A stretch of DNA of 36,567 nucleotides from a virus (taxonomy: Duplodnaviria; Heunggongvirae; Uroviricota; Caudoviricetes): the IMG/VR virus record IMGVR_UViG_2671180349_000007. One strand, given 5' to 3'. Below, one piece after another: positions 12,356 through 28,543 of the stretch. Both the position numbers and the translations under genes were made by a program. Position 1 is the first letter of the stretch. The number at the start of each line of letters is the position of its first letter. The notes beneath the pieces are model-generated. The model did no database searches. It was given only the letters and a program-made list of their open reading frames with translations, and was not told where the DNA came from.

Positions 12356-12421
12356 ATTGCTCTAATAATTCCATATTTTTAAAACGTGATGTACACTCAT
12401 CACGTTTTTTATTAGAGCAAT
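12356..12421. promoter_or_regulatory. bivalent C1 operator pair enclosing a terminator hairpin
   Basis: ATTGCTCTAATAATT at 12356-12372 and its inverted partner ATTAGAGCAAT at 12405-12421 flank the hairpin aaaacgtgatg-tacact-catcacgtttt. Confidence 0.6.
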
Positions 12422-12435
12422 CTATAAGGTGCACT

Positions 12436-12654
12436 ATGTGGCCATTCCGACGGAAATATCACTACTGGCTGATCGCCTTTGTTACGCCGACCGGCGGTAT
12501 CAGGCATGTCATCACCAGGTATCGCAACAAGAGACTCACCTTAGCCAGAATTTTACAGGCTGCCATAGGTGAGGGACTGGATACAAATTGCGTAGTCCTT
12601 CCACCTTCATACTTAGGAAAAATGACCGAAGCACAAGCTAATACGGAACTTTGA
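12436..12654 (+). CDS. small hypothetical protein (72 aa)
   Basis: AAGGTG RBS; stop is followed 1 nt later by the next ATG. Confidence 0.45.
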   Translation: MWPFRRKYHYWLIAFVTPTGGIRHVITRYRNKRLTLARILQAAIGEGLDTNCVVLPPSYLGKMTEAQANTEL

Positions 12655-12655
12655 A

Positions 12656-13918
12656 ATGAGCACTTCAGCACAAAACCAATCAATCGAAAATGTATCTATC
12701 CCTGACGTCCTGAATGCCGGTATCCCGGCCATTATCCAGAACATCCGGGCCGCGCAACGCCGCGTTAGTTGTGATGACCTCACAGCACGTTTTTTTGATA
12801 ATGCGGTTCAGTCAGCGGAGATGCTTCACGCACAGCTTATTGATGTTTATAACGCAGAAGCTGATAGCCATAACTCCATGGTAGATGCAGCTGAAAATAT
12901 GCAGTTGGATCTCGGTCTGAAGGGTAAAGAAATTGAAGAGCTTCAGCTGGAAATTGAACATTTGAAACGCCAGCAACAGGACGCGATCGACGATGCGACG
13001 CATGACGCCAACCAGCGTGCTGATAATGCCGAACGTATAAGCATTGAGCTGGAAACAAAACTCAATGAAATGACCACGATGGTTGAACTGCGGAACTCAC
13101 AGATTTCAACGCTAAAATCTCAATATAAAGAGATCATGAAACTTGATCCTTTTAACCTTGAGAAACGCTATAACAAAGCTAAAAGCGAGCGACAGGAACT
13201 GCGTAAGCAGGTCGCCGACCTTAACCAACAGCTCAAAAAAACTATTAAAGATGCAAGCGAAGCGCGCGTGGCATTTGCTAATAAAAAAGCAGAGGTTACC
13301 GCGCTGGTTAATGAGAATGCCAAATTTGCGACGCTCAAGAAGGAAATGTATGGCATTACTGAGCGCCGTTTCCCTGCAAGCAAACTTCATCCGACGTTAG
13401 GGCAAATCTCCTTCTTCCCGCGCCTCCTGGCTTATGGGATCTCATCGCCTAAAGAGTTCAATAACGAGCGTCCTTATATCGTTTCTAAGCTGGACTTTGC
13501 TTATCAGTTCTGCTGCGACATGGGCTATGCCATTGATATCCGGATCAACGAATGGTTGATGCCAAACTTCCAGCCGTTGGCCATTTTCCGCGAGTTCCAG
13601 CCGGAAGGTTGGGTAGAGTTCTTCCATGAATTGATCTGTAAAGAGATGGAAAGCCGCCGCCCGGAACTGGTCCGTCGAGTTGAGTGGGCGCAAGAGGTTA
13701 TGTTGGCAGAGGCAGAGCTGCCGTTCGAATCGGAATTTATTGATGATCTGGGAGCTAAAGGGCTGCATACCCTGTTTGATGTGGTTACCCGCCGTCATGA
13801 GCAGTTGGTTGTCGAATTGGGTTTAGAGGAAACAGCGGCAAGAAGACTTCTCGATGTTTGCTATGCACGTAGCGATGCATGGGAAAAAGAGAACGGCGGC
13901 ACTATTTACGTTCGCTGA
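12656..13918 (+). CDS. coiled-coil protein with C-terminal globular domain (420 aa)
   Basis: Residues about 60-240 are E/K/Q/L-rich heptad-like; Cys/Trp-containing C-terminal domain; no recognised family. Confidence 0.6.
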   Translation: MSTSAQNQSIENVSIPDVLNAGIPAIIQNIRAAQRRVSCDDLTARFFDNAVQSAEMLHAQLIDVYNAEADSHNSMVDAAENMQLDLGLKGKEIEELQLEIEHLKRQQQDAIDDATHDANQRADNAERISIELETKLNEMTTMVELRNSQISTLKSQYKEIMKLDPFNLEKRYNKAKSERQELRKQVADLNQQLKKTIKDASEARVAFANKKAEVTALVNENAKFATLKKEMYGITERRFPASKLHPTLGQISFFPRLLAYGISSPKEFNNERPYIVSKLDFAYQFCCDMGYAIDIRINEWLMPNFQPLAIFREFQPEGWVEFFHELICKEMESRRPELVRRVEWAQEVMLAEAELPFESEFIDDLGAKGLHTLFDVVTRRHEQLVVELGLEETAARRLLDVCYARSDAWEKENGGTIYVR

Positions 13919-13937
13919 CAGTTACAGTGTCACTTTT

Positions 13938-13971
13938 AATGCTGGTGGAGTGCGCCCACCAGCATTTTTTT
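13938..13971 (+). terminator. rho-independent terminator
   Basis: aatgctggtgg-agtgcgc-ccaccagcatt followed by a T-run; the stem contains a Chi octamer GCTGGTGG. Confidence 0.65.
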
Positions 13972-13990
13972 CGTCCAATGAGGAGGGCAT

Positions 13991-14497
13991 TTGAGTATTT
14001 TCAATAAACACGCACACCAGGAACGTCCGTACATCGTCATAGTAGATATTGATGGGACGATATCAGAGGCAACGGAAGACAGGCTGCATTTACTTCCACC
14101 ACCTGGCAAAGGTGCATTAACAGAGCACTGGAACGAGTTTAACCTTGCCTGTGACACTGATGCTCCCATCACTCCAGTTATTGATATGGTGCGCCAGTTG
14201 TCCGGCATTTACACCCTCTGGTTTGTAACCGGGCGCTGTGAGATAGCCAGGGATAAAACACGAGCCTGGTTGCGTAAGCACGTAACAAATGGGGCTGAGC
14301 CTTTGCTATCTATGCGTCCTGCCACCGATGACAGAAATGACGGTCCAGCAAAGATTGATCTCCTGAAGAAAATTGGTCTAAGTAAAATTGCGTTCGCGCT
14401 GGAAGATAAGATTGAAGTGGCGCGTGTTTTCAGGAGTCACGGCGTACTTACGTTAATGGTCAGGGAGTATGAAAACGCGCTTCTTCATCAACAATAA
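13991..14497 (+). CDS. HAD-superfamily phosphatase-like protein
   Basis: TTG start with GAGGAGGG RBS; motif I VIVDIDGT, then FVTGR and DKTRAW elements. Confidence 0.55.
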   Translation: MSIFNKHAHQERPYIVIVDIDGTISEATEDRLHLLPPPGKGALTEHWNEFNLACDTDAPITPVIDMVRQLSGIYTLWFVTGRCEIARDKTRAWLRKHVTNGAEPLLSMRPATDDRNDGPAKIDLLKKIGLSKIAFALEDKIEVARVFRSHGVLTLMVREYENALLHQQ

Positions 14498-14513
14498 TTG
14501 CTCTAATAAATCT
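14497..14513 (+). promoter_or_regulatory. C1 operator
   Basis: ATTGCTCTAATAAATCT, 16/17 match to consensus, overlapping the HAD stop codon. Confidence 0.65.
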
Positions 14514-14595
14514 TGATTTTTAAAACAGAGAAAGTGAAAATAAAAACATGCCGCAAGGCGCGGCATGTATCCAATCAATCACAGGAGCTGAAAAT

Positions 14596-14682
14596 ATGAA
14601 CACGGCATTCAAAATCATTATGGCCGCGATCTATTTCTGGCTGTTCTCTATCACTTTTGGCGGCATCGTCGCACATGGGTAA
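14596..14682 (+). CDS. small hydrophobic peptide (28 aa)
   Basis: AGGAG RBS 8 nt upstream; translation MNTAFKIIMAAIYFWLFSITFGGIVAHG. Confidence 0.35.
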   Translation: MNTAFKIIMAAIYFWLFSITFGGIVAHG

Positions 14683-14691
14683 GGGGGATGC

Positions 14692-15273
14692 ATGAAAGGC
14701 GAAGTGAAAGAGCGCGGCATGATTTTTAACGATGAGATGGTCAGGGCAATTCTTGGCGGGAATAAAACACAGACTCGCAGGATTGTTGAAGAAAAATTCT
14801 ATGGACGGGCAGTGGCCGCAGAGTTGCTTGCTAAACATTGTCCATATGGTCAACCGGGAGATCGTATTTGGGTTCGTGAAACCTACCGGGTACATGGCAA
14901 AGCGACGGACGTCGCAACGCTGGTTTATCGCGCAAGCGTGCGTAACTCCTGGACAGAACAAACGCACCGGGTTCCGGTTGAGGTTTGTAATAAGCCAGTA
15001 TCAGAAAAGTGGACGCCATCAATTCACATGCCGCGCTGGGCATCGCGCATTCTTCTGGAAATTACCAACGTGCGCGTTGAGCGGTTGAACGATATCAGCG
15101 AATGCGATGCAAGGGCTGAGGGCGCACCAACAGAATCGACCCTCATTGGCGATAAGCATTACCCAGGTTTCCGCAGCCTATGGAAATCAATTTATGGCGA
15201 AGATAGTTGGAACGCTAATCCTTGGGTGTGGGTAATAGAGTTTGAGCGTATTCAGGGGGCAACCAGTGAGTGA
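14692..15273 (+). CDS. conserved prophage protein, ASCH/PUA-like (193 aa)
   Basis: AAGGGGG RBS; motifs FNDEMVRAILGGNKTQTRR and GDRIWVRET. Confidence 0.6.
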   Translation: MKGEVKERGMIFNDEMVRAILGGNKTQTRRIVEEKFYGRAVAAELLAKHCPYGQPGDRIWVRETYRVHGKATDVATLVYRASVRNSWTEQTHRVPVEVCNKPVSEKWTPSIHMPRWASRILLEITNVRVERLNDISECDARAEGAPTESTLIGDKHYPGFRSLWKSIYGEDSWNANPWVWVIEFERIQGATSE

Positions 15274-15532
15274 GTCAAAATGCCAAATTAATGGCAACAA
15301 GATAGAACCGTGCGCGGCGTTGGCACAATCCCTGGAGCATGACGCTGAATACACGACGCGAAAAGGTCTGCTGAAATACAAAATCTATAACCATGAATTA
15401 ATTCATTCACAAGACCTGATCATGCTGCGGTCTGGTGAATTTTCTAAATCGCCTATTCGAGTTTCATTTTGCCCGTTCTGTGGTGAAAGTCTGAAAACGT
15501 GGGAAGCGGAGGCAACCAGTGAGCAAAATTAA
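15266..15532 (+). CDS. small protein with C-terminal CPFCG zinc-ribbon-like motif
   Basis: GTG start overlapping the previous stop; start uncertain. Confidence 0.4.
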   Translation: MSESKCQINGNKIEPCAALAQSLEHDAEYTTRKGLLKYKIYNHELIHSQDLIMLRSGEFSKSPIRVSFCPFCGESLKTWEAEATSEQN

Positions 15533-16220
15533 CTATCAGGCACTACGTGAGATAGCAAAACAGGCAACACAGGGCGAATGGGTCGCGTTTATTTCGACGG
15601 GTACAGGTACGTATGCTGTGCATACGCCCGGTGATAAACGATGTGAAGATGTTATCAAATGGACCGGCTTTGATGGACTGAAAAACGCAGAGAACAACGC
15701 TCGTTATATTGCCGCATTCAACCCAAAGGTTGCACTGGAGCTACTTGGTGAAATTAAGCGCCTGGAGGACACAAATATTGATGCTATGTGCCGAATAGCA
15801 CCGCTTGAGACTAAGCTCGCGGCTCTGGTGGCAGAGAACGCCGGGCTGAAACACGCAATGGCTGTAACTCTTGATCATGTGTCGGTCACGGATGCAGGGC
15901 AGGCCGGAGTTGCTGCAATGATTATCAACGATGCCCTACACCACAGCGAAACTCCAGCTACCGATGCTTTTCTGGCTGAAATTCGTGCGGAAGCACGCAA
16001 CGAGGGGATTAACTATACCGCCAGCCGTCTTGCTGCTGCGTTCAATCACGGATTTATCAATAAGTCTTTGCGTGAAGTTTTCGACGTTACGCGCATGATT
16101 CTGTCAGCGAAAGAAGAGTTGGCTAATGAACCGTACCCGATTGATGGCCTGTCCGGTGAATATGCGGAGAAATCCCTTGAAGAATGGGCGGAACAGATTC
16201 GCAAAGGAGCTGACAAGTGA
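15519..16220 (+). CDS. Ead/Ea22-like prophage protein
   Basis: Central coiled-coil and C-terminal TPATDAFLAEIRAEA motif; GTG start. Confidence 0.6.
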   Translation: MSKINYQALREIAKQATQGEWVAFISTGTGTYAVHTPGDKRCEDVIKWTGFDGLKNAENNARYIAAFNPKVALELLGEIKRLEDTNIDAMCRIAPLETKLAALVAENAGLKHAMAVTLDHVSVTDAGQAGVAAMIINDALHHSETPATDAFLAEIRAEARNEGINYTASRLAAAFNHGFINKSLREVFDVTRMILSAKEELANEPYPIDGLSGEYAEKSLEEWAEQIRKGADK

Positions 16221-16627
16221 AGAAGATGATTTTTGTCGCGGCATTGTTGGTGAATATCCAACAAGTGCATGCTTCAGCAGCTATTGTAGCCTCTACCGCC
16301 GCGACTACGGCTGCTGTAGCTGCTGCGAACTCTGCGAATATCGCAAACCAACAGGCACAGCGTGCTGCTAATGCATCAGCCAGCGTTCACCCAATCACCA
16401 TTAAGAGCAGTAAGCAAAATCTGGGATTCATAACGTGCGGCACGCGTTCTAATGAAGCTGTAGGCTCACTGGGATGTACGGTATATGGCGATAGTGAGCG
16501 CAGAGAAATTCCATGGAAAACGTGGCCCGGATACGTTCTCGGATCGAAGCTCCCTGCCAGCTACGAAGTAAATGCCGTATCGTTTGATCACTATAACGGC
16601 GTGGCAACTGTCTATTTTACATACTGA
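16217..16627 (+). CDS. secreted protein with N-terminal signal peptide (136 aa)
   Basis: MKKMIFVAALLVNIQQVHA signal-like N-terminus followed by an Ala/Thr-rich linker. Confidence 0.55.
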   Translation: MKKMIFVAALLVNIQQVHASAAIVASTAATTAAVAAANSANIANQQAQRAANASASVHPITIKSSKQNLGFITCGTRSNEAVGSLGCTVYGDSERREIPWKTWPGYVLGSKLPASYEVNAVSFDHYNGVATVYFTY

Positions 16628-16635
16628 GGCTCCGC

Positions 16636-17301
16636 ATGAAATTCTCCAAATTTTCTGAGTTGGTGAATCGTATTTTGTCCAACAACCACAGCCATCGTCG
16701 CGATATGGATGTAACGATCGTTGTTCATTCGCCTGGCAGCATTGGTTCAACACCATCAGTTGAGGTTCAGTCAATTCACGCTGGTTTTGATTGGGATTCC
16801 GGGAAAGTGCTGATTTTCCCAGCACAGCCACTGACCACGCTAACACCAGAACAGATTACTGATATTACTGATAGTGTGCGCAAAGGTCAGTCCTGGCACG
16901 CATATCAGGAATACAAGAAGCATAAAGAGCAGTTGGAAAAATTATCGATTGAACTTGATGCCGCAAAACAGCGCATTGCAGAGCTGGAGGGTAATTTCAC
17001 GGTGCTGGCAGTGGAGAATGCCTCAATGAAGCTGTTTATCAGGGGTTGTTGCTACGTGTTTGATGGCGAGCAGGATGAAATATCTGATGCGTATATCTGC
17101 GCAAGAGACGGAGGCATGCCGCAAACCCCGGCTACAGATGCTCTCCTGGCTGATGTACGGGCGGTGGCGTTTGACGAACTTCGCGCGGCGTTTGTCAGGC
17201 ACGCAAAAGTTGCAGGACTGGATGATGCCGATACCGTAACGCTTAAGGAAGTGACAGAAGCATTGTTGCATTGTGCGGAACAGATTCGCGCGCCTGAATA
17301 A
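16636..17301 (+). CDS. Ead/Ea22-like paralogue
   Basis: Shares the C-terminal TPATDALLADVRA motif with the 15519 gene. Confidence 0.55.
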   Translation: MKFSKFSELVNRILSNNHSHRRDMDVTIVVHSPGSIGSTPSVEVQSIHAGFDWDSGKVLIFPAQPLTTLTPEQITDITDSVRKGQSWHAYQEYKKHKEQLEKLSIELDAAKQRIAELEGNFTVLAVENASMKLFIRGCCYVFDGEQDEISDAYICARDGGMPQTPATDALLADVRAVAFDELRAAFVRHAKVAGLDDADTVTLKEVTEALLHCAEQIRAPE

Positions 17302-17397
17302 TTAAATTTAGTGTTGTAAATAAAATTTAATCCTTAACCGGAGGGATTTCTGCACCCTCATAACATCAGGAGGCCGCCCGAGGGGCGGTAATGAAAA

Positions 17398-18111
17398 ATG
17401 GCTGAATTAACAAAAGAACAATTAATCGAAGAAGCTAAATTAAAAATAGCGATTGCGAAATGCCATCCCAATTCAGGCGTGGCACGAGTAGAGGGTGAGT
17501 TATTCAAAATTGCACTGGCATCGCTGGAAGCAGATCCAGTTGCTTATATTTTCAAACATCCGGCCGGGAAATTATTCTGGGCTTTAACGGATGAAAGCAA
17601 TAAAGAGCAAGCGGACGTTATTCCTGTTTATGCTGCCGCGCCTGCGTCGGTTGTGCCGGATAATGCATCAGAGCCTCTTGCTTATGCTTACAAAGAGCTT
17701 ACGCCTGAGATTATGCGCAACCATTTAGCTGTATTCGAGCGATATGGAATAGCCCCAAACGATAGCTCTACCACAATTCAGGCACTGCGAATCGCGCTGG
17801 ATGGCATAGAGCGGAGCGACGCCATGCTTCATGGTGCCGAACCTGTAAGCCAAACTTACAAGTTGAACCAGCTATCGGGCAACTCTCCGGTAACTCCGGA
17901 TGATTGGATAAGCTGTAGTGAGCGAATGCCGGATAGCAAAACAGCTGTTCTTGTTGCCAGGGAGTTTGACAGGAAAGGTGACTGGCGAATGAAGTGGGCG
18001 ACTTACATACCGGGACATCCTGACGCTAATGATGGTTGGATAATTCCTGGTGCGTCGTGGATTCCATCACACTGGATGCCGTTACCAGAACCGCCGCAGG
18101 AGGCAAAATGA
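17398..18111 (+). CDS. DUF551-type phage protein (237 aa)
   Basis: C-terminal WISCSERMP...WMPLPEPP signature. Confidence 0.6.
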   Translation: MAELTKEQLIEEAKLKIAIAKCHPNSGVARVEGELFKIALASLEADPVAYIFKHPAGKLFWALTDESNKEQADVIPVYAAAPASVVPDNASEPLAYAYKELTPEIMRNHLAVFERYGIAPNDSSTTIQALRIALDGIERSDAMLHGAEPVSQTYKLNQLSGNSPVTPDDWISCSERMPDSKTAVLVAREFDRKGDWRMKWATYIPGHPDANDGWIIPGASWIPSHWMPLPEPPQEAK

Positions 18112-18368
18112 TGGATGTAAAAGAGAAGGTTTTGCAGGTGATGCGTTCCCGTGCTGCCCTGCAAGAGAAAGCTCTCGGCGGGGAATATCCATTCACGATA
18201 GCAACCTGGAATCTGCGGTTGGCAATGGAGAAGGAATTTCCTGATGAAGAATGGCGTTCGGCAGATTTGCGCAAAATTCTTATTGGGATGGCTAAAGACG
18301 GAACAGTATCCAAAGATACCCATGCCAGCCGGATTGGTCAGGCGGTATGGAGACTGGAGGTGAGGTAA
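18108..18368 (+). CDS. hypothetical protein (86 aa)
   Basis: ATG overlaps the previous stop (ATGA). Confidence 0.4.
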   Translation: MMDVKEKVLQVMRSRAALQEKALGGEYPFTIATWNLRLAMEKEFPDEEWRSADLRKILIGMAKDGTVSKDTHASRIGQAVWRLEVR

Positions 18369-18444
18369 TGAGCTGGCCTGAAGCATTTGCGATTGTAGGC
18401 GTAGCTATGGCGATTGCCGCTATTTTTATCTTCTGGGGGTAACG

Positions 18445-18678
18445 ATGGGAAAATTAACTTTTGTAGTCGAATTTGAGGATGGCAAAGAGCCACCTGTTAG
18501 CGCCAATCTTGATGTTGCTGGTGGCAGGCTGGTTTCGGTTCTATTTGGTGATTACCGCGACGACTTCTTTCAGCCTGAAGAAGTTGATGTAGTGCGAGAA
18601 GCATTAAACGAGCTAAGTGTTGATAACGATGATGCTCATGCGGAAATCATCAAAAAAATGGAACTGCTAACTCACTAA
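18445..18678 (+). CDS. acidic hypothetical protein (77 aa)
   Basis: ORF in track; same operon. Confidence 0.4.
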   Translation: MGKLTFVVEFEDGKEPPVSANLDVAGGRLVSVLFGDYRDDFFQPEEVDVVREALNELSVDNDDAHAEIIKKMELLTH

Positions 18679-18856
18679 ATTATCAATTATGGTGCTATCA
18701 CCTACGACACCGAGAGAAAATTTATAATGTCAAAAGTAAATGTTTTGATTTTTTCAGCAATTGTTGGCTTTGGTTTTACTGCCGGAGTGCAGATTTATAT
18801 TGCGTGGGAAAAAATCATCAACTACGCATGGAGTTGTTTTATTAAGTGAGGTAAGT

Positions 18857-19150
18857 ATGTGGAGAGGTAATAGTCATGGCAAAAGCCAGATGATACTTAC
18901 CGAATATAAGCTAGACCACAAAACCAATAAATCACGCTCAGTATATTTGCTCCGGCACAATAGCCGCGTAAGAAATACCTTGCTGGAACAAAATCTGACA
19001 GTTGAAATGGATAATTACGGTGGATTCAAGCCAACAATTTCGCTTGATGATTTTCCTCGTGGTTTAAGCGAAAGAGAAGCAATGCTGAAATTAGCAGAAT
19101 GGCTACAAAGATTAAGCATTGCTATTGAAGATAACTGGTCTGAACCTTAA
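18857..19150 (+). CDS. hypothetical protein (97 aa)
   Basis: GAGG RBS 6-7 nt before ATG 18857; a 39-aa hydrophobic ORF (18727-18846) lies just upstream. Confidence 0.4.
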   Translation: MWRGNSHGKSQMILTEYKLDHKTNKSRSVYLLRHNSRVRNTLLEQNLTVEMDNYGGFKPTISLDDFPRGLSEREAMLKLAEWLQRLSIAIEDNWSEP

Positions 19151-19156
19151 ATTTAT

Positions 19157-19531
19157 ATGATGACACTAAAACATTTTCTTGACCGCCCATTATGGGCGGC
19201 AGCCGCAGGCTATGACTTTAATTATATGGATTGCATGTCTTATACTGCCAATGCATACGACCATTCGTTCAGCCTGCTGTTTAATTCTTTAAGAATATTG
19301 CCGGAAACAGAAGTTGGAGAGCTTCATTTATGGCTATTGGGCTTTATCGCGGCTGTCGTTGGTATTGCTGTATGGCCTTTTATTTTCTGGCTGGTGGCTG
19401 TTGTAGTGTGGTTTAAGTGCAAGACATACCGGAAAAAGTATTTCTTAGGTGATGGAATGACTGATATTGCCAAAATGAACATTGAAAAATGGACTAAGGA
19501 ATGTGAAAAGAAATGGCGCAAAAAGAAATGA
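19157..19531 (+). CDS. membrane protein (124 aa)
   Basis: Hydrophobic segment LWLLGFIAAVVGIAVWPFIFWLVAVVVWF and basic C-terminus. Confidence 0.5.
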   Translation: MMTLKHFLDRPLWAAAAGYDFNYMDCMSYTANAYDHSFSLLFNSLRILPETEVGELHLWLLGFIAAVVGIAVWPFIFWLVAVVVWFKCKTYRKKYFLGDGMTDIAKMNIEKWTKECEKKWRKKK

Positions 19532-20172
19532 CTACTCTAACGACAGCATACTTACAGCAATTGGTATTTTTTGCAGGCGAGGCTACTTGTCATCCTGACG
19601 CAAACTATTTATTGGAATTTGAGAGGTTAGCGTCACCCGGTATCGTTCTGGAACTGGCCCAACAGGTGCTGGCCTTGAGACAAAAAGAGCAACATGAAAG
19701 TAATACGTGTAGATTGAATTTTGAGCAGTGGCTGGAACAGCAACGCGGAAAAATCGATGTGGACTGTGGTTGTGTGTCCACTGAAACATTCATGCACTGG
19801 CTGCGGGTAGCTTACGAGGCTGGCAACTATCCGGATATTCCGGATAGTTCGGTGCCAGCGCCAGGAAAGGGCGTCACCGGTGAACGTATCCGCATTAAGC
19901 CGCATGTTTATCGCGAACTGGTTAACCGTCTCCACGATACAGCGATCAAGTGTGCTGGCACCCAGCAATTACGAGAAAGAATTAGCCGTGTTTTGGGCGA
20001 CGTTATTACGCCATATCATCATAAACAAGCCGAGAAAAGCGGTCTGGAAAGGGGGCATCTTGAGGCAGCATTAAACATTAAGCCGGGGCATACGCTTGGC
20101 ATTATTGATGCACTGTTGGTTCATAAGATGGCCAGGGCTTTATTGTCGTTGGTAGGGGGCAATGACAACTAG
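19513..20172 (+). CDS. hypothetical protein (219 aa)
   Basis: ORF in track; overlaps the previous gene by 19 nt. Confidence 0.5.
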   Translation: MAQKEMTTLTTAYLQQLVFFAGEATCHPDANYLLEFERLASPGIVLELAQQVLALRQKEQHESNTCRLNFEQWLEQQRGKIDVDCGCVSTETFMHWLRVAYEAGNYPDIPDSSVPAPGKGVTGERIRIKPHVYRELVNRLHDTAIKCAGTQQLRERISRVLGDVITPYHHKQAEKSGLERGHLEAALNIKPGHTLGIIDALLVHKMARALLSLVGGNDN

Positions 20173-20256
20173 GAAAAAATCGCATTACTGGTGGCAAAGC
20201 CATAACTACTGATACAATATTTCTAGGTTAAAGATCTGGCATTAGGTAGAGATAGC

Positions 20257-20721
20257 ATGTTTCTTCATATCAATCCCGATTGGGCATCAGCTATTGCGGC
20301 ATTTGGGTCAGCAATAGCTGCTTTTATTAGTTTGCGCACAAGTAAAAAGCTTGGATTATTCGATAAGGAAAAATTTTATAGTGAAGCATTGATAAACTTT
20401 GCTGATAGGGCAAATAAAATAGCAACAGGAAAAGCTGGATCAGACTGGGATGTTAATGACGCAAGTAATATAATTCTTTCACTAAATGCCGCAAAAGAAA
20501 CTATTGAAAGTGCGCCAAAACCTATTCGAGAGCAACTAAAACAATATTACAAACATAATCTTTGCCATGAGATCATAACCGAATTAGAGGCTCACTCTCC
20601 CCCAGATTCAGTAATTGTAAGAGAACCATCAGAGTATGAAGGCAAGATCATGGGATTGTGGGATGAGATTAAAATATTTCTGGGTTATACAGTGGTATCA
20701 GAAGCAGACCTTGAAGATTAA
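20257..20721 (+). CDS. low-GC membrane-anchored hypothetical protein (154 aa)
   Basis: Gene is visibly AT-rich relative to its neighbours; N-terminal hydrophobic helix WASAIAAFGSAIAAFISL; lies directly upstream of phd. Confidence 0.55.
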   Translation: MFLHINPDWASAIAAFGSAIAAFISLRTSKKLGLFDKEKFYSEALINFADRANKIATGKAGSDWDVNDASNIILSLNAAKETIESAPKPIREQLKQYYKHNLCHEIITELEAHSPPDSVIVREPSEYEGKIMGLWDEIKIFLGYTVVSEADLED

Positions 20722-20828
20722 AGTTTGGTGTGACCACATCATTTCATCAATGATGCCCGAAGTGGGGAGTTTGACGATTGTCCGGTGATTTAAGCTGCAA
20801 AGTGCTGGTGCTTTATGCTTGTGAAGTT

Positions 20829-20858
20829 TATAATTGTGTACACATAACGAGTACACGA
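20829..20858 (+). promoter_or_regulatory. phd-doc promoter and operator
   Basis: TATAAT -10 followed by palindromic TGTGTACACA and GAGTACACG sites, matching the Phd autoregulatory operator as I recall it. Confidence 0.6.
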
Positions 20859-20865
20859 GGTGTTT

Positions 20866-21087
20866 ATGCAATCCATTAACTTCCGTACCGCGCGTGGCAA
20901 CCTTTCTGAAGTGCTCAACAATGTTGAAGCCGGGGAAGAGGTTGAAATCACCCGCAGAGGCCGTGAGCCAGCAGTAATTGTCAGCAAGGCTACTTTCGAA
21001 GCCTACAAAAAAGCGGCGCTGGATGCTGAATTTGCATCCCTGTTTGACACCCTGGACTCCACCAACAAGGAACTGGTTAACCGATAA
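20866..21087 (+). CDS. phd: Phd antitoxin
   Basis: 73-aa protein [26 protein letters not shown]... recognised as P1 Phd. Confidence 0.95.
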
Positions 21088-21467
21088 TGAGGCATATATC
21101 ACCGGAAGAACTTATTGCGCTTCATGATGCGAATATAAACCGCTACGGCGGCCTGCCGGGAATGTCAGATCCGGGTAGGGCAGAGGCCATTATCGGGAGA
21201 GTTCAGGCCAGAGTTGCCTACGAAGAGATCACCGACCTTTTCGAAGTCTCCGCCACCTACCTGGTGGCTACAGCGAGAGGGCATATATTCAATGATGCCA
21301 ATAAGCGTACCGCGCTAAACAGTGCGCTGTTATTTCTACGCCGTAACGGGGTGCAGGTATTTGATTCACCTGAACTGGCAGACCTTACCGTAGGGGCTGC
21401 GACCGGAGAGATATCTGTATCTTCTGTCGCCGACACGTTACGTAGATTGTATGGTTCCGCGGAGTAG
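21087..21467 (+). CDS. doc: Doc toxin (Fic-fold kinase)
   Basis: 126-aa protein recognised as P1 Doc; ATG overlaps the phd stop (TAATG). Confidence 0.95.
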
Positions 21468-21471
21468 ATTA

Positions 21472-21651
21472 ATGGCATGTAAATACAACAAATTGTCCCG
21501 TGAAGCGTTAAAGATGCTTCTTGATGGCGTGAGTCGCCGCGAGGTAAAGCAATACCTGGTTGGTAAGCAAATTGGTGCCAGGACCGCTATTGCTGTGTTA
21601 TGCCGTCAGGAAATGGTTGTGCTTAAACAGAGAATGCCGGGCAGCAGATAA
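21472..21651 (+). CDS. small post-doc protein (59 aa)
   Basis: GGAG RBS; sits where I recall P1 pdcA. Confidence 0.4.
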   Translation: MACKYNKLSREALKMLLDGVSRREVKQYLVGKQIGARTAIAVLCRQEMVVLKQRMPGSR

Positions 21652-21678
21652 AGCCCAATCAGTGATGAAAGGTGTGAT

Positions 21679-22722
21679 GTGAAAGCCGTAATTACTCCCT
21701 TTGTACAAAAAGAGCTTGGCGTCGCCACATTCAAAGTGGATCAGGAAGTCAGAAAGCTGGTGGAGGCTGGCCGTAAATTTATTATGGAGCCGGTGCCGCG
21801 TGAGTTAATCGAGCACATGGACGACGGCCTCGTTGTTTCCGAGCAAACTATGGCAACAAATGAGGCGTTGCAGCCGTTTTTTAACAGCGATGAACTGTTT
21901 CGCCGTATTGGTGGAATTGACTCGCTGGTGGCGTGGTTGCGCAGGAAAGAGGGGCAATGCCAGGCCGCAGATCGTAGCTGGTGTGACAACCATATTGTCC
22001 ACGCAGAACGAGACAATAGCGCGGTGTTGTTGTGCTGGCATCACGATAACCATTACCGGATGCGTGGTTTTAATGAGCTGAAAGAAACGCTGCATAATAA
22101 TCGCGTTAACTGGATACTGGATGTCGCCCGTCAGGAAATGGGGCTTTCAGATGGCCATGATTTAAGTATTCAGGAACTGTGCTGGTGGGCTTTCATGCGC
22201 AACATGATGCACCTGATGCCGGAAGAAGTTTGCCGTATATCAATAAATAAGATGAAAGCCGCAACGCAGGATAGCGGACCTCTGAAAGAGGCGGATATTC
22301 GCCCGTATGACGATCGCGCTACAGCATATGTTCAGATGATGGAAGAACGCGCCGCGCCGATGCGTGCAAAAGTATGCTCTGTGGATGTTGACTCCGACCC
22401 TGGCATGGCGCATTTCAAAATACCAAAACTGCAATCGCTAAAATTACCTGAGTACATGGACTTTGTTGCTTCCCGTCCATGCTGTGGGTGTGGAGCGGCG
22501 GGAGCTGGCGCTCACATTACGCCTTATATCGTTCGTCATAGTCGATTATGCGCGCATGACATTTACGCAATTCCTCTGTGCCAGTCATGCCAGCGTGATA
22601 TTGAGCGTGACCGCGATAATTGGGAGAAGACGCACGGTAGGCTGGCGATGCATCAACGATTGTTCTTTGATTACGCGCTTGGAGTCGGCGCTATCACAAG
22701 TCACTCGTCGAGCGTTAGATAA
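21679..22722 (+). CDS. Cys/His-rich protein (347 aa), pdcB-position
   Basis: GTG start; clusters CDNHIVH, CWHHDNH, CCGCG, CQSCQ suggest metal binding. Confidence 0.55.
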
Positions 22723-22723
22723 A

Positions 22724-22762
22724 ATTGCTCTAATGTATTGCTATTTCTTTAATAGAGGGTAT
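22724..22762. promoter_or_regulatory. C1 operator pair upstream of lpa
   Basis: ATTGCTCTAATGTATTG plus an inverted partial site TTTAATAGAGGG. Confidence 0.5.
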
Positions 22763-22810
22763 TATATTCCACGTTGATTAGTTGACATGGGCTAATCAGT
22801 AGGTGACAGG

Positions 22811-23263
22811 ATGTTACTTAACTGGCAGGGACGCCACTTCATGGAAATAAATCACTCACGAATAACATCGTATGAGATTGCGGATTACATGATCCGCACT
22901 AAGTCTCTTCTATCAGCGAAAGAACTCGCAGCAATCCTTGAAAAGGAATACCCGCATCTGGATGTCGATAAGCGCGACGTTTATCTGCGCTTAAAGGCTA
23001 TCGCTGTGTCTAAGTATTCGTCTGTTTTGATTGATGACAGTACACGCCCACGTAGATTTCAGATCCACTCTTTGAATCCTGAATTCTTTCGCCGCAGCCG
23101 CGCGCCGCGCCGGTTTGATGAAAAACTCCAGAACGAACTCTATATGACGCAGGACGAAAAGGAACGCCGGGAGCACCAGCCTTGGGTAATGGCGCGTCAA
23201 CTTTTCAATAAGGTGGCCCGTCAGCACCGTCATTACGGTAATGCCACATCCGCACGTATCTGA
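22811..23263 (+). CDS. lpa: late promoter activator Lpa
   Basis: 150-aa ORF, C1-controlled, immediately upstream of pacA, as in P1. Confidence 0.7.
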   Translation: MLLNWQGRHFMEINHSRITSYEIADYMIRTKSLLSAKELAAILEKEYPHLDVDKRDVYLRLKAIAVSKYSSVLIDDSTRPRRFQIHSLNPEFFRRSRAPRRFDEKLQNELYMTQDEKERREHQPWVMARQLFNKVARQHRHYGNATSARI

Positions 23264-23348
23264 TTGATTGCTTGCCCGTTCCGGGCCTTTTGACATGTGA
23301 CTTTCGTTACCCTCGCGTCAAAAAGAGTTTTTACGAAAGGAAGCATAA

Positions 23349-24542
23349 GTGACCTGGGACGATCACAAGAAGAATTTTGCTCGCCTGGCGCGAGATGGTG
23401 GTTACACCATCGCACAGTATGCCGCCGAGTTTAATCTTAACCCTAATACCGCACGTCGTTATCTCCGTGCCTTCAAAGAAGACACTAGGACTGCGGACAG
23501 CCGCAAGCCAAATAAGCCAGTCAGGAAGCCACTAAAAAGCATGATCATTGATCACTCTAATGATCAACATGCAGGTGATCATATTGCGGCTGAAATAGCG
23601 GAAAAACAGAGAGTTAATGCCGTTGTCAGTGCCGCAGTCGAGAATGCGAAGCGCCAAAATAAGCGCATAAATGATCGTTCAGATGATCATGACGTGATCA
23701 CCCGCGCCCACCGGACCTTACGTGATCGCCTGGAACGCGACACCCTGGATGATGATGGTGAACGCTTTGAATTCGAAGCTGGCGATTACCTGATAGATAA
23801 CGTTGAAGCGCGGAAGGCCGCGCGCGCTATGTTGCGTCGGTCCGGGGCCGATGTTCTGGAAACCACTCTTCTTGAAAAGTCTCTTTCTCATCTCCTTATG
23901 CTGGAGAACGCCAGGGATACGTGTATTCGCCTGGTGCAGGAAATGCGCGATCAGCAAAAAGACGATGATGAAGGTACTCCGCCTGAATACCGTATCGCGA
24001 GCATGCTAAACAGCTGTTCCGCGCAGATAAGCAGCCTGATCAACACCATTTACAGCATCCGGAATAACTATCGAAAAGAAAGCCGGGAGGCGGAAAAGCA
24101 CGCTTTGTCTATGGGGCAAGCTGGCATTGTTAAGCTGGCATACGAACGAAAGCGTGAAAATAACTGGTCAGTGCTGGAAGCAGCTGAATTCATCGAGGCG
24201 CATGGTGGGAAAGTTCCGCCCCTGATGCTGGAGCAAATCAAAGCCGATCTGCGTGCTCCTAAGACCAATACTGATGATGAGGAAAGGCAAACAGCCGTCG
24301 GTGGCCCTTCTCTTGAAGATCTGGATAAAGTTGCGCGAGAACGGGCCGCCAACCGCCGCGCCGATGCCGCATTGTGGATTGAGCAGCGTAGGGAAGAAAT
24401 CGCCGATATCGTTGATACAGGCGGTTATGGAGATGTTGATACTGAAGGTGTATCAAACGACCCATGGCTGGAACAAGACCTGGACGAAGACGAGGAGGAA
24501 GACGAAGAAGTTACCCGCAAGCTATACGGGGATGATGATTAA
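23349..24542 (+). CDS. pacA: pacase subunit PacA
   Basis: 397-aa protein starting [18 protein letters not shown] (GTG start); contains the pac site; acidic C-terminal tail. Confidence 0.9.
23542..23700. other. pac packaging site
   Basis: Four TGATCA hexamers (23542-23581) and three TGATC(A/G) hexamers (23672-23700) flanking the cleavage region, inside pacA; seven Dam sites. Confidence 0.85.
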
Positions 24543-26026
24543 TGGCCAGAAGTTGCGTAACGGATCCACGTTGGCGCGAGCTGGTGGCGCTATATCGTTA
24601 TGACTGGATTGCTGCCGCTGATGTTTTGTTCGGCAAAACACCTACCTGGCAGCAGGATCTGATTATTGAGTCTGTGCAGGAACAGGGTAGCAAGACATCT
24701 GTTTCGTCTGGTCACGGTACCGGGAAATCAGACATGACTTCTATCATGATCATGTTGTTCATAATCATGTATCCCGGTGCCCGCGCCATTATCGTTGCGA
24801 ACAAAATTCAGCAGGTAATGACCGGTATATTCAAGTACATCAAGATAAACTGGGCTACTGCCACCAGCCGTTTTCCATGGCTTGCTGATTATTTTGTTCT
24901 GACAGAAACCGCTTTCTATGAGGTTACTGGTAAAGGTGTATGGACTGTAGTACCGAAGGGCTTTCGTCTGGGAAGTGAAGAAGCTCTCGCCGGTGAACAC
25001 GCAGATCATCTTCTGTATATTATCGATGAAGCCTCCGGTGTCAGTGATAGAGCTTTCGGTATCATCACTGGTGCTCTTACCGGACAGGATAACCGCATCT
25101 TATTACTGTCACAGCCTACACGCCCAAGCGGCTATTTCTACGATACTCACCATAAACTGGCCAAGCGTCCTGGTAACCCTGATGGCGTTTATACGGCGAT
25201 CACGCTTAACAGTGAGGAATCACCGTTGGTAACGCCAGCATTTATCAAAATGAAGCTGGCGGAGTACGGCGGGCGTGATAACCCTATGTACATGATTAAG
25301 GTACGCGGCCTATTCCCTAAATCACAGGATGGCTTCCTTCTTGGACGTGATGAGGTTGAACGTGCAACGCGGCGGAAAGTCAAGATTGCCAAAGGATGGG
25401 GCTGGCTTGCATGTGTGGACGTTGCTGGTGGTACGGGACGGGATAAGTCCGTTATCAATATCATGATGGTGTCCGGCCAGCGAAATAAACGCCGTGTAAT
25501 CAACTATCGAATGCTGGAATACACAGACGTTACAGAAACGCAGCTTGCCGCCAAAATTTTCGCAGAATGTAATCCTGAGCGATTCCCAAATATCACCATA
25601 GCGATAGACGGCGATGGCCTGGGTAAAGCAACGGCGGATCTGATGTACGAGTATTATGGTATTACCGTACAGCGTATACGCTGGGGTAAAAAGATGCATA
25701 GCCGTGAAGATAAGAGCCTGTACTTTGATAAACGTGCTTATGCCAACGTTCAAGCCGCAGAGGCCGTAAAATCTGGTCGCATGAGACTGGATAAGGGTAA
25801 TGAAACTATTGAGGAAGCGTCGAAAATCCCTGTAGGGATTAACTCCGCAGGTCAATGGAAGGTGATGTCAAAGGAAGATATGAAGAAAAAACTCAACCTG
25901 CACTCACCGGACCATTGGGATACATATTGTTTCGCTATGTTGGCGAACTATGTTCCCCAAGATGAAGTGCTTAGCGTCGAAGACGAAGCGCAGGTTGATG
26001 AAGCTCTGGCATGGCTTAATGAGTAA
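24542..26026 (+). CDS. pacB: pacase/terminase large subunit PacB
   Basis: 494-aa ORF translationally coupled to pacA (ATGA overlap). Confidence 0.9.
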
Positions 26027-26028
26027 AA

Positions 26029-26045
26029 ACTTGCTCTAATAAATT
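26029..26045 (+). promoter_or_regulatory. C1 operator at the start of the ImmI-like region
   Basis: CTTGCTCTAATAAATTG, 15/17 match to consensus, 3 nt after the pacB stop. Confidence 0.55.
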
Positions 26046-26178
26046 GTGTTTTTTGACTGCCGATGTTACATTGAACCTGACCTCTTGCGCCTTGAGGCAT
26101 TTTCGGTTTATGCTTATCAGGCACCTCAGTAAAACGGGTGCCGGGATTGGAACCCCGGATAATGTCAAAGGCGACACA

Positions 26179-26200
26179 GACGCCAAAAGCGTCTTTTTTT
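26179..26200 (+). terminator. intrinsic terminator or attenuator
   Basis: GACGC-caaaa-GCGTC followed by seven T residues. Confidence 0.55.
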
Positions 26201-26224
26201 GTGTCATGCCATCGCACGGCCATA

Positions 26225-26320
26225 CGTAGCGTTTAGCTCAGAGATCAATGGTAGTGCTGGCTGGGCTGCCGAAAGGCAGGCCGGTTCCCTTTGACGCCGG
26301 TAGTTCCAACCCAGTCAGTG
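26225..26320 (+). ncRNA. c4-like antisense regulatory RNA (boundaries approximate)
   Basis: Multi-stem structure (ctggg...cccag enclosing a GAAA-tetraloop hairpin and a ccgg hairpin) exposing GTTCCAA/GGTTCC, complementary to the two GATTGGAACC loops at 26145-26154 and 26334-26343; position upstream of icd-ant as in P1 ImmI. Confidence 0.3.
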
Positions 26321-26385
26321 CTACCGCCATTGAGATTGGAACCTCACGCGGTAGCTCCTTAACTTAGTCAAAGGAGGCTGCCATT

Positions 26386-26607
26386 ATGGCTACTATCCCT
26401 ACCCCAACTCATCCTGAATTTATCTGGCGCTTTTACTCCTGCCAGAAACGTCACTATCACTTCGTTATTGCACCGACAGAAGATGAGGCTCGCTCTCAGC
26501 TTCCTGATGCACCCTGTATTTTCTCCGCCCGTTTTTCTACTGATTCGCGCAATTCTCTCAGTTACTGGTGCCTCCCTGTTAACACTTCTGCTCAGGAGGG
26601 ACTATGA
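26386..26607 (+). CDS. icd: Icd-like protein (73 aa)
   Basis: AAGGAGG RBS; 73-aa ORF overlapping the ant start (ATGA), the P1 ImmI arrangement. Confidence 0.55.
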   Translation: MATIPTPTHPEFIWRFYSCQKRHYHFVIAPTEDEARSQLPDAPCIFSARFSTDSRNSLSYWCLPVNTSAQEGL

Positions 26608-27659
26608 GAACGTCATTAGTCACCCGTGAAGAGATGATCGAGGCAATTGAACAGCACACTGCCTGTATCAGTACCAGGGATATACCGGGCGTTATTGCCA
26701 ACTACTTCATGATCACCAAACAACTTTACCGGAGAAAGGACAAGAACGCTGTTCACCGCATTCTGTTGTCTGATATCCGCGAATACCTGCTCGAACAGGG
26801 GCATCTGAATTACGCAACCGTCGCAGCCGAAACACGCAAGGAGGCACACAGAATGAAAGCAAGCAAACCAGATGTTGTCGTTACAAAGCCTTTGACAGCA
26901 ACCACACCAGCACCGGTCATGGATGCTATCCCCAACACCGGAGACACAATCGACAGCCAGACGCTGTTAAAGATGGTTAATGAGGCGCGTAAGTTATGTG
27001 GGGAACCATTAGTAAGAAATAATAAGTTTATTGAGAAGGTTGTGGATGAGCTTGAAGGTGAGACCTACACAAAAAGTGTAGGTCGCAAAAATGGTGCAAA
27101 CATAGACATTATCACCATGACTTTCAAACAAGCCCTGCGAGTCGCCGCGCGCGAGTCAAAAGCGGTCCGCCGTTCGCTGATCGACAAGCTGGAGGAGTTG
27201 CAGCAGGTTAGCGCTGCTTCTCCAGCGATCCCCCAAACATTGCCCGAAGCTCTGCGCCTGGCTGCCGAACTGGCTGAACAAAAGCAACTTCTGGAACAGA
27301 AAGCCCACCAGCTAAATCAGCAGCTGGTGGCCGCAGCCCCCAAAGTCGATTTTGCCGACCGGGTATCAGTGGCTAAGGGGATCCTGATTGGAAATTTTGC
27401 AAAGGTTGTTGGACTTAAGCAAAACGCGCTGTTTGCCTGGTTACGGGAGAACGGCATCCTGATTGCGTCCGGCGGACGTAAAAATGTGCCATTCCAGCAG
27501 TACATCAACGCCGGGTATTTCACTGTGAAAGAAGTGGTGCTAGATGATGAAGATGGCTACCAGATACGGCTGACGCCTCAATTAACGGGGAAAGGCCAGC
27601 AGTGGTTGACGCGTAAGCTGCTCGATGCTGGCTTGTTAAAACCGGTGGCGGCTGAATAA
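26604..27659 (+). CDS. ant: antirepressor Ant, KilAC-type C-terminal domain
   Basis: 351-aa ORF coupled to icd; C-terminal ILIGNFAKVVGLKQNALFAWLRENGIL region typical of phage antirepressors. Confidence 0.7.
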   Translation: MRTSLVTREEMIEAIEQHTACISTRDIPGVIANYFMITKQLYRRKDKNAVHRILLSDIREYLLEQGHLNYATVAAETRKEAHRMKASKPDVVVTKPLTATTPAPVMDAIPNTGDTIDSQTLLKMVNEARKLCGEPLVRNNKFIEKVVDELEGETYTKSVGRKNGANIDIITMTFKQALRVAARESKAVRRSLIDKLEELQQVSAASPAIPQTLPEALRLAAELAEQKQLLEQKAHQLNQQLVAAAPKVDFADRVSVAKGILIGNFAKVVGLKQNALFAWLRENGILIASGGRKNVPFQQYINAGYFTVKEVVLDDEDGYQIRLTPQLTGKGQQWLTRKLLDAGLLKPVAAE

Positions 27660-27666
27660 TGGAAGA

Positions 27667-27688
27667 ATGCCCGGTTGATGCCGGGCAT
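27667..27688. terminator. hairpin between convergent ant and c1
   Basis: ATGCCCGG-ttgatg-CCGGGCAT followed by an A/T-rich stretch. Confidence 0.45.
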
Positions 27689-27691
27689 AAT

Positions 27692-28543
27692 TTATTGCGC
27701 GCTTTCGGGGTTGTCGTTTACTGGCTGCCCCTTCTTAGTTTTACGGCTGCGCGTAACTGATGCGGCTGACTTAACCTTTTTCTCTTCGCGAGTGATGGCA
27801 ATTTGTTTTTTTACATTTTCAATATCTGCCAGGCGATATATTTTTGCCTGCGGCCAGCGGTCGCAGATGATCGGTTCTATGGAGTCATAAAGGCTAAATT
27901 TTGCTTTCTCGAATTCACCGTTGATGATGATTCCATCACGGAGAGTTTCATCGCAGATAAACACGCCACACAGCGGCACATGGTAACTAACTGATTTACC
28001 GTTATTGTAGTTAGGACTACTGGAGATGTAGTGAACGCGCAGCATTGTTTCGCTAAAGCCGTGTACGCGCATACGGAATTTTTCATCCTCCGGGTACTGC
28101 TTCATTAGCTCTTTTGTTGCTTCCAGGTTCTCTATGTATTTCGCACTGTGCTCATTGAACCCCGCGCTTTTTTGGATGCGAATGTCCTTATCAATCAGAT
28201 GAATAATGCGGCCAGCGGTCATGTTGACGCTGTTTACAGCTTCTGTCTGATAGGTCGTAACCTTACGCACACCGCGAAGGATGTTAGGCACAGGATATAA
28301 AATAGTCTTTGGGATATTTAGGTCTGGGTACTGTTCCAGTTCCCGCGCCATTAAAGTCCATTTATCAATTTCAGCCTGAATGCTGTCCGTTTCTTTGAAC
28401 GGCAGAACGACAACCGGGCGTACAGGACGACCGTCGCTGGCGGCATCAACGTGTTGGGCGCGTGCAACAGCTTTTTTTAGAAAGAGATCCCTGAAGCTGA
28501 CGAACTCCTGGTACAGTTGTTCGCCGTAGACATAATTTATCAT
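27692..28543 (-). CDS. c1: C1 master repressor
   Basis: 283-aa protein MINYVYGEQLYQEFVSFRDLFLKKAVARAQHVDAASDGRPVRPVVVLPFKE... recognised as P1 C1. Confidence 0.95.
   Translation of the reverse strand: MINYVYGEQLYQEFVSFRDLFLKKAVARAQHVDAASDGRPVRPVVVLPFKETDSIQAEIDKWTLMARELEQYPDLNIPKTILYPVPNILRGVRKVTTYQTEAVNSVNMTAGRIIHLIDKDIRIQKSAGFNEHSAKYIENLEATKELMKQYPEDEKFRMRVHGFSETMLRVHYISSSPNYNNGKSVSYHVPLCGVFICDETLRDGIIINGEFEKAKFSLYDSIEPIICDRWPQAKIYRLADIENVKKQIAITREEKKVKSAASVTRSRKTKKGQPVNDNPESAQ

Follow-up and report, generated by a model that had tools for sequence, protein, structure and literature searches.

What is the run of genes that lies between pap and phd-doc in IMG/VR virus record IMGVR_UViG_2671180349_000007, and how did it come to be there? 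The stretch analyzed here, 36,567 nucleotides long and referred to below as the window, is part of a P1-like phage-plasmid. An earlier note, made from its letters without database searches, had read positions 14596–20172 (the block) as a lambdoid-style moron block standing in place of the P1 hot/lxr/humD region. The analysis reported here confirms the gene run and supports this reading of it in part. We consider it probable that the block is this element's own allele of the P1-family pmgT operon, an operon whose position is known from publications as RD-5 and variable region 8, and that it is regulated and exchanged in the way described below.

Position and predicted control of the block

On both sides of the block, the window follows P1. 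Positions 4204–14747 align to P1 (NC_005856) at 98.8% identity and positions 20724–26026 at 92.7% identity, and the P1 gene order is kept (pmgS, pap, ..., phd, doc, pdcA, pdcB, lpa, pacA, pacB). The features that delimit the slot, open the operon and close it are the following (aa, amino acids; ORF, open reading frame).

13991–14497, plus strand: pap (3'-phosphatase / polynucleotide-kinase-like), which forms the conserved left border of the slot; its product is 95% identical in aa to P1 Pap; PHROG 415.
14497–14513, plus strand: C1 repressor operator ATTGCTCTAATAAATCT, corresponding to P1 OpmgT (former Op88); one mismatch to the consensus, and a 17-mer identical to the P1 site.
14498–14541, plus strand: predicted sigma-70 promoters P2pmgT/P1pmgT, overlapping the operator and placed by homology to the P1 annotation.
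14546–14568, plus strand: hairpin of high stability (−17.2 kcal/mol, z −3.44) within the predicted 5' leader.
14596–14682, plus strand: 28-aa hydrophobic peptide that opens the operon, with an AGGAG ribosome-binding site.
14692–15273, plus strand: PmgT homologue with a predicted ASCH-like fold, the same protein as P7 Upf86.8; 47% identity to P1 PmgT aa 1–232, with the pmgT start codon shared.
15266–15532, plus strand: 88-aa protein, a homologue of P7 Upf87.4; PHROG 4030.
19513–20172, plus strand: 219-aa protein, the last of the block, whose C-terminal 106 aa correspond to P1 PmgU at 88% identity.
20866–21467, plus strand: phd-doc addiction module, conserved right flank of the slot; 100% and 99% aa identity to P1.

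The block thus occupies the position of the P1-family pmgT operon, with pap on its left and phd-doc on its right, and its end genes are those of that operon: the first large gene is PmgT-like and the last bears the PmgU sequence. It has in common with RD-5, region 8, and the P7 hea operon the position, a C1 operator as in P1, the same first ORFs, and a PmgU-type 3' end. The 28-aa peptide was found with 100% aa identity in P1, P7, SJ46, RCS47, and three further P1-family loci; it is a backbone gene and not lambdoid cargo. The operon is opened by a conserved, unannotated ORF of 28 aa. This ORF is intact in the P1 reference, where it carries no annotation, and its DNA is better conserved than its flanks.

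The variability of this slot and the Ead-like content of P7 are already known from the literature and from GenBank annotation. The slot was described as RD-5, "between pap and lxr", by Venturini et al. in 2019 (PMC6906374), and as variable region 8, from pmgT to humD, in 2022, when pmgT of JL22 was found to be replaced by a cluster with an Ea22 gene (PMC9603915). The P7 "hea operon" (AF503408) sits behind the same operator, and the original deposit describes one of its products as P22 Ead-like; further versions of the slot are found in SJ46 and RCS47, and Ead-like cargo is present there in P7, SJ46, RCS47, and JL22. More generally, about 30% of the genes of P1-like elements were reported by Pfeifer and Rocha in 2024 to have been recently exchanged (PMC10879196). 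Because the slot has been published twice and gene exchange with integrative phages is established, the finding itself has already been described; the slot, in P1-like phage-plasmids, is on record as a hot spot of recombination, and its rediscovery has little value of its own. Only the particular gene combination is unrecorded in the collections that we searched, where no phage or plasmid record covered at least 80% of the block. Compared with the known alleles, this one also differs in having humD cut to 17 codons and a rare 570-bp segment at the place of pmgV to lxr.

The earlier note had proposed a plus-strand run controlled by a C1 operator, and both the run and the operator were confirmed in the sequence. 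The operator starts directly past the pap stop codon, and its P1 counterpart is annotated as C1-controlled in the GenBank record of P1, from which all P1 regulatory features were taken. Ten C1-operator-like sites (at most three mismatches) were detected in the window against 0.21 expected. The promoters were placed by mapping P1 features 10295–10338 through the offset of the 98.8% alignment. Downstream of them, 14 plus-strand ORFs are packed into 14596–20172 with intergenic gaps of −19 to +96 nucleotides. A consensus scan of 13900–21600 returned fewer sigma-70-like sites than expected from shuffled sequences (5 versus 12.2); the sole plus-strand site within the block, at 19619, matches weakly (9 of 12), and no convincing plus-strand terminator was found inside the block in a scan of the same interval. 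Separately, we noted that the leader hairpin has a 9-bp GC-rich stem just downstream of the predicted promoter −10 and that, on the minus strand, it resembles an intrinsic terminator.

GC profiling was among the checks suggested in the earlier note. The GC content is backbone-like, 46–50%, at 14.4–18.3 kb and 19.5–20.1 kb, and falls in two patches, at 18.3–19.8 kb (37–42%) and at 20.1–21.0 kb. Apart from these patches, the profile did not mark the block as foreign, its center being at 46–50% like the flanks; within most of the block the composition is that of the backbone, and it is low only at 18.3–19.8 kb.

Central zone, gene junctions, and exchange

Local alignments of the relatives gave a fine mosaic. 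The interval from 13900 to about 14780 is common to all of them, and all resume at 20724. In P7, SJ46, and one plasmid, homology continues up to 15522, and in RCS47 and pVPS18EC0801-3 it stops at 15273. SJ46 matches again at 17886–19532, and the matches of several relatives run from about 18356 or 18851 up to 20153. Altogether, 1,424 plasmids carry pieces of the 13900–21500 query. Seven P1-family loci covered 86% of the block and six integrative-phage loci 48%, all of it central: the 5' arm (14596–15507) and the 3' arm (18381–20172) were found only in P1-family elements, and non-P1 phages matched only the central 2.9 kb, 15508–18380. The five genes of this zone are the following.

15519–16220, plus strand: Ead/Ea22-like protein 1; Pfam Ead_Ea22 (PF13935), 6.5e-26, 92 bits against a cutoff of 27.
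16217–16627, plus strand: 136-aa protein with an N-terminal signal-peptide-like sequence, MKKMIFVAALLVNIQQVHA/SA; PHROG 8805.
16636–17301, plus strand: Ead-related protein 2; PHROG 368 (4e-55), a family shared with Ead protein 1; TPATDALLA coded at 17128–17154.
17398–18111, plus strand: DUF551 protein whose N-terminal part is modular; Pfam PF04448, 4.6e-20 at aa 170–234, 72.7 bits against a cutoff of 22.
18108–18368, plus strand: 86-aa protein at the right end of the shared zone; PHROG 2814; its RCS47 homologue is annotated "eaa protein".

The pieces that match integrative phages are 120–500 bp long and 86–99.5% identical, most of them above 90%; positions 17508–17884 of the DUF551 gene, for example, are 99.5% identical to an Stx phage. 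In Stx2 phage P13374, ORF15/ORF14, situated between exo and xis, contain the matching DNA. In an E. coli chromosome, it is found past yfdP-yfdQ-yfdR, within a prophage early-left operon whose last gene is excisionase-like, and in the Uetakevirus PAS61 it stands among Eae and Ea22 genes in the early region, downstream of replication genes. The 16200–17520 piece is present in 2,405 of 5,426 complete E. coli genomes, at 2,959 chromosomal and 241 plasmid places, and homologues of the 136-aa protein are common among chromosomal prophages. Because the center is nearly identical, in pieces, to exo–xis or early-left DNA and is frequent in E. coli genomes, these sequence comparisons support exchange with integrative temperate phages, though not beyond the central 2.9 kb. 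The lambdoid likeness and modular exchange proposed in the earlier note are therefore retained for 15508–18380 and not for the two arms, which were found in P1-family elements alone.

The region of lambda and Stx phages that lies between exo and xis under pL (the "ea" region, with Ea22, Ea8.5, and orf60a-63-61-73) is one of the closest known counterparts of the block: an early operon under repressor control, made up of small, dispensable, mosaic genes. It has in common with the block Ea22-family and DUF551 modules, a gene-junction sequence, and pieces of up to 99.5% DNA identity. However, the block is predicted to be driven by a C1-controlled P1 promoter on a plasmid prophage rather than by pL, it has no exo, bet, gam, xis, or int neighbors, and its 5' and 3' arms have no counterpart in the integrative phages that we sampled.

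The two Ead genes illustrate how this mosaic is built. They had been described as Ead/Ea22-like paralogues sharing a TPATDA(L/F)LA motif, and both indeed code for it, TPATDAFLA of protein 1 being encoded at 15954–15980. Protein 1 passes the Pfam model, but protein 2 gave no Pfam Ead_Ea22 match and was not filed as a member of PF13935. The two proteins align over 72 aa at 38% identity, motif included, and since the alignment is limited to this stretch, protein 2 is, by sequence, a partial paralogue of protein 1. Both genes end in an ...AEQIR C-terminus coded by an 18-nucleotide repeat. Protein 1 is itself a two-part mosaic with its breakpoint at the TPATDA motif. Of the other two central proteins that had been named in advance, the DUF551 assignment was confirmed by the Pfam match, and the signal peptide at 16217–16627, which was judged by eye only, was likewise seen again. 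None of the ten block proteins scanned matched NCBIfam.

Several breakpoints in the 5' part of the block fall at two copies of a 16-nucleotide gene-junction repeat.

15255–15270, plus strand: gene-junction repeat, copy 1, GGGGGCAACCAGTGAG, carrying the ribosome-binding site and GTG start of the next gene.
15508–15523, plus strand: gene-junction repeat, copy 2, GGAGGCAACCAGTGAG, at the left edge of the zone in common with integrative phages.

Homology to one relative or another stops at 15273 and 15522 and starts at 15508, that is, at these copies: the similarity to PAS61, Stx2c_EH0430, and Ro157c2 begins at 15508, and that to P7 and SJ46 ends at 15522. In most copies of the 16-mer, GGRGGCAACCAGTGAG, a stop codon overlaps the GTG start of the next gene. 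Its core 13-mer was found at gene boundaries in 7 of 13 fetched loci, including Stx phages, a chromosomal prophage, and other P1-like plasmids. The matches listed place the 16-mer in over 120 IMG/VR contigs, most of them 4–50 kb long. At 143 junctions, it was seen in 31 different pairings of protein clusters, drawn from 10 on the upstream and 15 on the downstream side, with Ea22-like genes as the commonest partner. The upstream gene usually ends in ...GGNQ, its stop overlapping the GTG start of the next gene. Both upstream genes of the window read the joint in another frame (...ATSE...), which suggests that the joint is conserved as DNA and not as protein.

Further breakpoints were found at the TPATDA-coding segments of both Ead genes (15949–15989 and 17163–17168), the homology of ORF 16636–17301 to other loci ending at 17163–17168, and at 17885/17886, six codons ahead of the DUF551 domain, in line with the mosaic three-part build described for Ea22 proteins (PMC10834534). 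The modules of the slot appear to be shuffled at the junction 16-mer and at the TPATDA linker. Conserved boundary sequences are a known trait of lambdoid mosaicism. The defined junction sequence offers a testable handle on the movement of single-gene cassettes between P1-like and lambdoid phages. We also asked whether the block might be an insertion with repeats or a mobile element at its borders; apart from the junction 16-mer, no direct or inverted repeats were found to flank it, and there was no transposase.

The PmgT homologue, reference P1, and proposed function

The first large gene of the operon had been called ASCH-like. ORF 14692–15273 gave no match in Pfam (E up to 10), in NCBIfam, or in a sequence search of the PDB, and no precomputed Pfam domain was present on the 120 close homologues listed for it. 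Its AlphaFold model, built from 56 homologues, reached a predicted local distance difference test (pLDDT) score of 86. In a Foldseek search of the PDB, the top 16 matches were all ASCH-fold proteins, YqfB, 3s9x, and ZmASCH included, with probabilities of 0.98–1.0; the template modeling (TM) score was up to 0.73 when normalized by the target and about 0.4 when normalized by the query. Eight of the 56 homologues matched Pfam ASCH (PF04266) weakly, the best at 2.4e-4. The motif of the ASCH family is GxKxxExR. At this site, the ORF reads GGNKTQTRR, with Thr for the canonical Glu; K25, T28, R29, and R30 do not vary across the family alignment, in which an N-terminal G-x-K-x-x-x-R-R is conserved. 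Compared with known ASCH proteins (PF04266; the YqfB N4-acetylcytidine (ac4C) amidohydrolase and the ZmASCH ribonuclease), the predicted fold is alike, but the ORF is larger, contains insertions, stays below the Pfam threshold, and has Thr in place of Glu.

Since the assignment comes from structure prediction and the sequence searches gave nothing, the ASCH label is correct, as far as the model goes, at the level of the fold only. A word-indexed protein search returned close relatives alone (82–100% identity). In an exhaustive representative search, a threshold of E ≤ 0.001 gave a PmgT/Upf86.8 family of 44,418 representative proteins, and one of E ≤ 1e-10 gave 33,846. On the basis of the predicted structure, this family seems to form a branch of the ASCH fold without a Pfam model, and the first large gene of the operon would then belong to a very large family of this fold.

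Positions 10489–11558 of reference P1 (NC_005856) were compared with 14692–15273 and 19513–20172 of the window. The earlier note would have given up its reading had the same genes stood at this position in reference P1. P1 does carry the ends of the block, namely the 28-aa ORF, the PmgT homologue, and a PmgU part, and lacks roughly ten interior genes. PmgT residues 232–307 are coded by the same DNA as the last gene of the block (window 19811–20038, 92%) read in another frame, and PmgU matches only the C-terminal 106 aa of that gene's product. For these two reasons, P1 would represent a collapsed operon: its pmgT looks like a fusion of the PmgT core with an out-of-frame read of the operon's last gene, and its pmgU seems to be a copy of this last gene that has lost the N-terminal part. 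The P1-type junction was found in 5 plasmids and the pap-Op88-peptide segment in 591. P1 is thus atypical at this locus, and annotation carried over from it (pmgT, pmgU, "morphogenetic") misleads.

We take the block to be an early, dispensable host-modulation operon. The account given of its architecture, regulation, and origin is likely to be right; our confidence in any single biochemical role of its proteins is much lower. C1 would silence the operon in the lysogen, and PpmgT (the promoters overlapping Op88) would transcribe it early after infection or induction, following the same regulatory logic as the pL-driven exo–xis genes. Its cargo would be dispensable for plaque formation and would tune host physiology and the lysis-lysogeny decision. 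Cassettes may be swapped by homologous recombination at short conserved junctions in cells that contain both a P1-like plasmid and integrated prophages, and reference P1, with its pmgT fusion and pmgU truncation, would be a collapsed version of the operon.

Published data on homologues are consistent with such a role. In P1, CRISPR interference (CRISPRi) showed every gene of the slot to be non-essential (PMC10695390). Ea22 of lambda and Stx phages is pro-lysogenic and favors host survival (PMC7093339, PMC10834534). The DUF551 protein YfdS belongs to the yfdQRST cluster, overexpression of which inhibits DnaA-dependent initiation (PMC4776307). The ASCH-fold proteins matched by the PmgT model include an ac4C amidohydrolase and a ribonuclease, and the fold may point to binding or hydrolysis of RNA or modified nucleosides.

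Several points weigh against this account. C1 control and the single-transcript status of the block were deduced from the sequence and from the P1 annotation. The operator is monovalent, so that repression could be leaky, and the weak promoter-like site at 19619, together with gaps of 96 and 48 nucleotides, leaves room for internal starts. The functional readings lean on distant or partial homologues: the C-terminal domain of lambda Ea22 differs from those of the block proteins, and the YfdS evidence concerns the whole cluster under overexpression only (PMC4776307). That the difference in P1 is a deletion there, and not an insertion elsewhere, was judged from reading-frame logic and allele frequency rather than from phylogeny. 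Finally, the link between junctions and breakpoints comes from 13 hand-picked loci and not from a population-wide sample.

Morons, as described by Hendrix and colleagues, are autonomous promoter-gene-terminator units, often of atypical composition and expressed by the prophage. Like the block, they consist of accessory, dispensable, horizontally mobile genes, and true morons acting in lysogenic conversion would have the block, or its secreted and membrane proteins, expressed by the plasmid prophage and protecting the lysogen, for instance by superinfection exclusion. The signal-peptide-like protein and four small hydrophobic ORFs, the monovalent operator, and the low-GC patch at 18.3–19.8 kb would fit such a reading. 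However, the block is embedded in a repressor-controlled operon that begins at a lytic-repressor operator, which speaks against expression in the prophage; beyond the weak site at 19619, it has no promoters of its own and no convincing terminator, and its GC content is backbone-like over most of its length. Moreover, the matching lambdoid DNA lies in pL-driven early regions and not at late-region moron positions, and the defence-protein models of PADLOC gave no match for ten proteins (nine of the block and the 154-aa ORF described below) and so lend no support to a role in defence. We consequently regard the moron reading, and with it the name given in the earlier note, as improbable. The "pmg" names would make the block a morphogenetic operon whose proteins are required for head or tail assembly, as stated by the "putative morphogenetic function" of the P1, P7, and RCS47 annotations; a weak Phage_scaffold match in ORF 16636 (E 0.006) also speaks for it. 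This match is below threshold and falls within a coiled coil, the P1 slot genes are non-essential by CRISPRi, the content of the slot differs in almost every relative, and its cargo is common to siphovirus- and podovirus-type integrative phages of unrelated morphology; a role in assembly is very hard to reconcile with these observations, and we give it hardly any weight.

A counter-defence island, in which hypervariable early cargo mainly inhibits host or prophage anti-phage systems and turns over with host defences, is compatible with the operon being an allele of the pmgT slot, of which it would be a specific functional version. The predicted early expression, the dispensability in a laboratory host, the extreme allelic diversity, and the sharing among phages of the same hosts are typical of anti-defence loci and speak in its favor, and an ASCH/PUA-like fold could act on modified nucleic acids or signaling nucleotides. 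Conversely, no homology to a characterized anti-defence protein was seen in scans made without an anti-defence library, and the published phenotypes of Ea22 and of the exo–xis region concern the lysis-lysogeny decision and not defence evasion. We hold this version to be possible but rather unlikely. A more elaborate proposal, and as a whole an unlikely one, is that the pmgT slot is a cassette exchange site where the joint GGRGGCAACCAGTGAG lets P1-like phage-plasmids and lambdoid prophages trade early genes singly, that at least one cassette (Ea22-type, DUF551, ASCH-fold, or small membrane) serves counter-defence or host takeover with a turnover that tracks host immunity, and that P1 pmgT/pmgU is a deletion scar.

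The 3' arm and neighboring segments

The remaining genes of the block, between the 86-aa protein and the PmgU-bearing last gene, are small.

18368–18442, plus strand: 24-aa hydrophobic peptide; its start overlaps the preceding stop, and it is identical in SJ46.
18445–18678, plus strand: 77-aa acidic protein; PHROG 3876.
18727–18849, plus strand: 40-aa hydrophobic peptide; PHROG 5525.
18857–19150, plus strand: 97-aa protein; PHROG 1258.
19157–19531, plus strand: 124-aa membrane protein; PHROG 2638; maximum Kyte-Doolittle score of 2.6 at aa 66.

Among the tiny hydrophobic ORFs that had been predicted, those of 28 and 24 aa do exist, with clear ribosome-binding sites or start/stop overlap, but the third has 40 aa and not 39.

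Downstream of the block lies a distinct segment, with the features below.

20154–20723, plus strand: separate low-GC replacement segment of 570 bp, about 38% GC, at the position of P1 pmgV-upfMNO-hot-lxr-humD.
20257–20721, plus strand: ORF in this segment, 154 aa, with an N-terminal hydrophobic helix; PHROG 1779.
20740–20790, plus strand: humD remnant, its last 17 codons, recognized by alignment to P1.

It is this 570-bp segment, 20154–20723, that replaces hot/lxr/humD, whereas the block itself replaces the interior of P1 pmgT-pmgU; the replacement was therefore placed imprecisely in the earlier note. In the comparison with P1, pmgV, upfM-O, hot, and lxr were missing throughout the 36.5-kb window. 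At 20191–20218 there is a promoter-like site whose −10 is TG-extended. The segment is rare (9 of 72,556 plasmids); a protein search yielded just one protein cluster for the 154-aa ORF, and tblastn against a phage collection returned two matches at 35% identity. This ORF fits the moron pattern better than the block does.

Further downstream, between pacB and c1, the window has an insertion at 26027–27692 when compared with P1. The product of its ORF at 26604–27659 is 351 aa long and includes a phage antirepressor KilAC (ANT) domain, and a like insertion has been reported for pTZ20_1P and RCS47 (PMC6906374).

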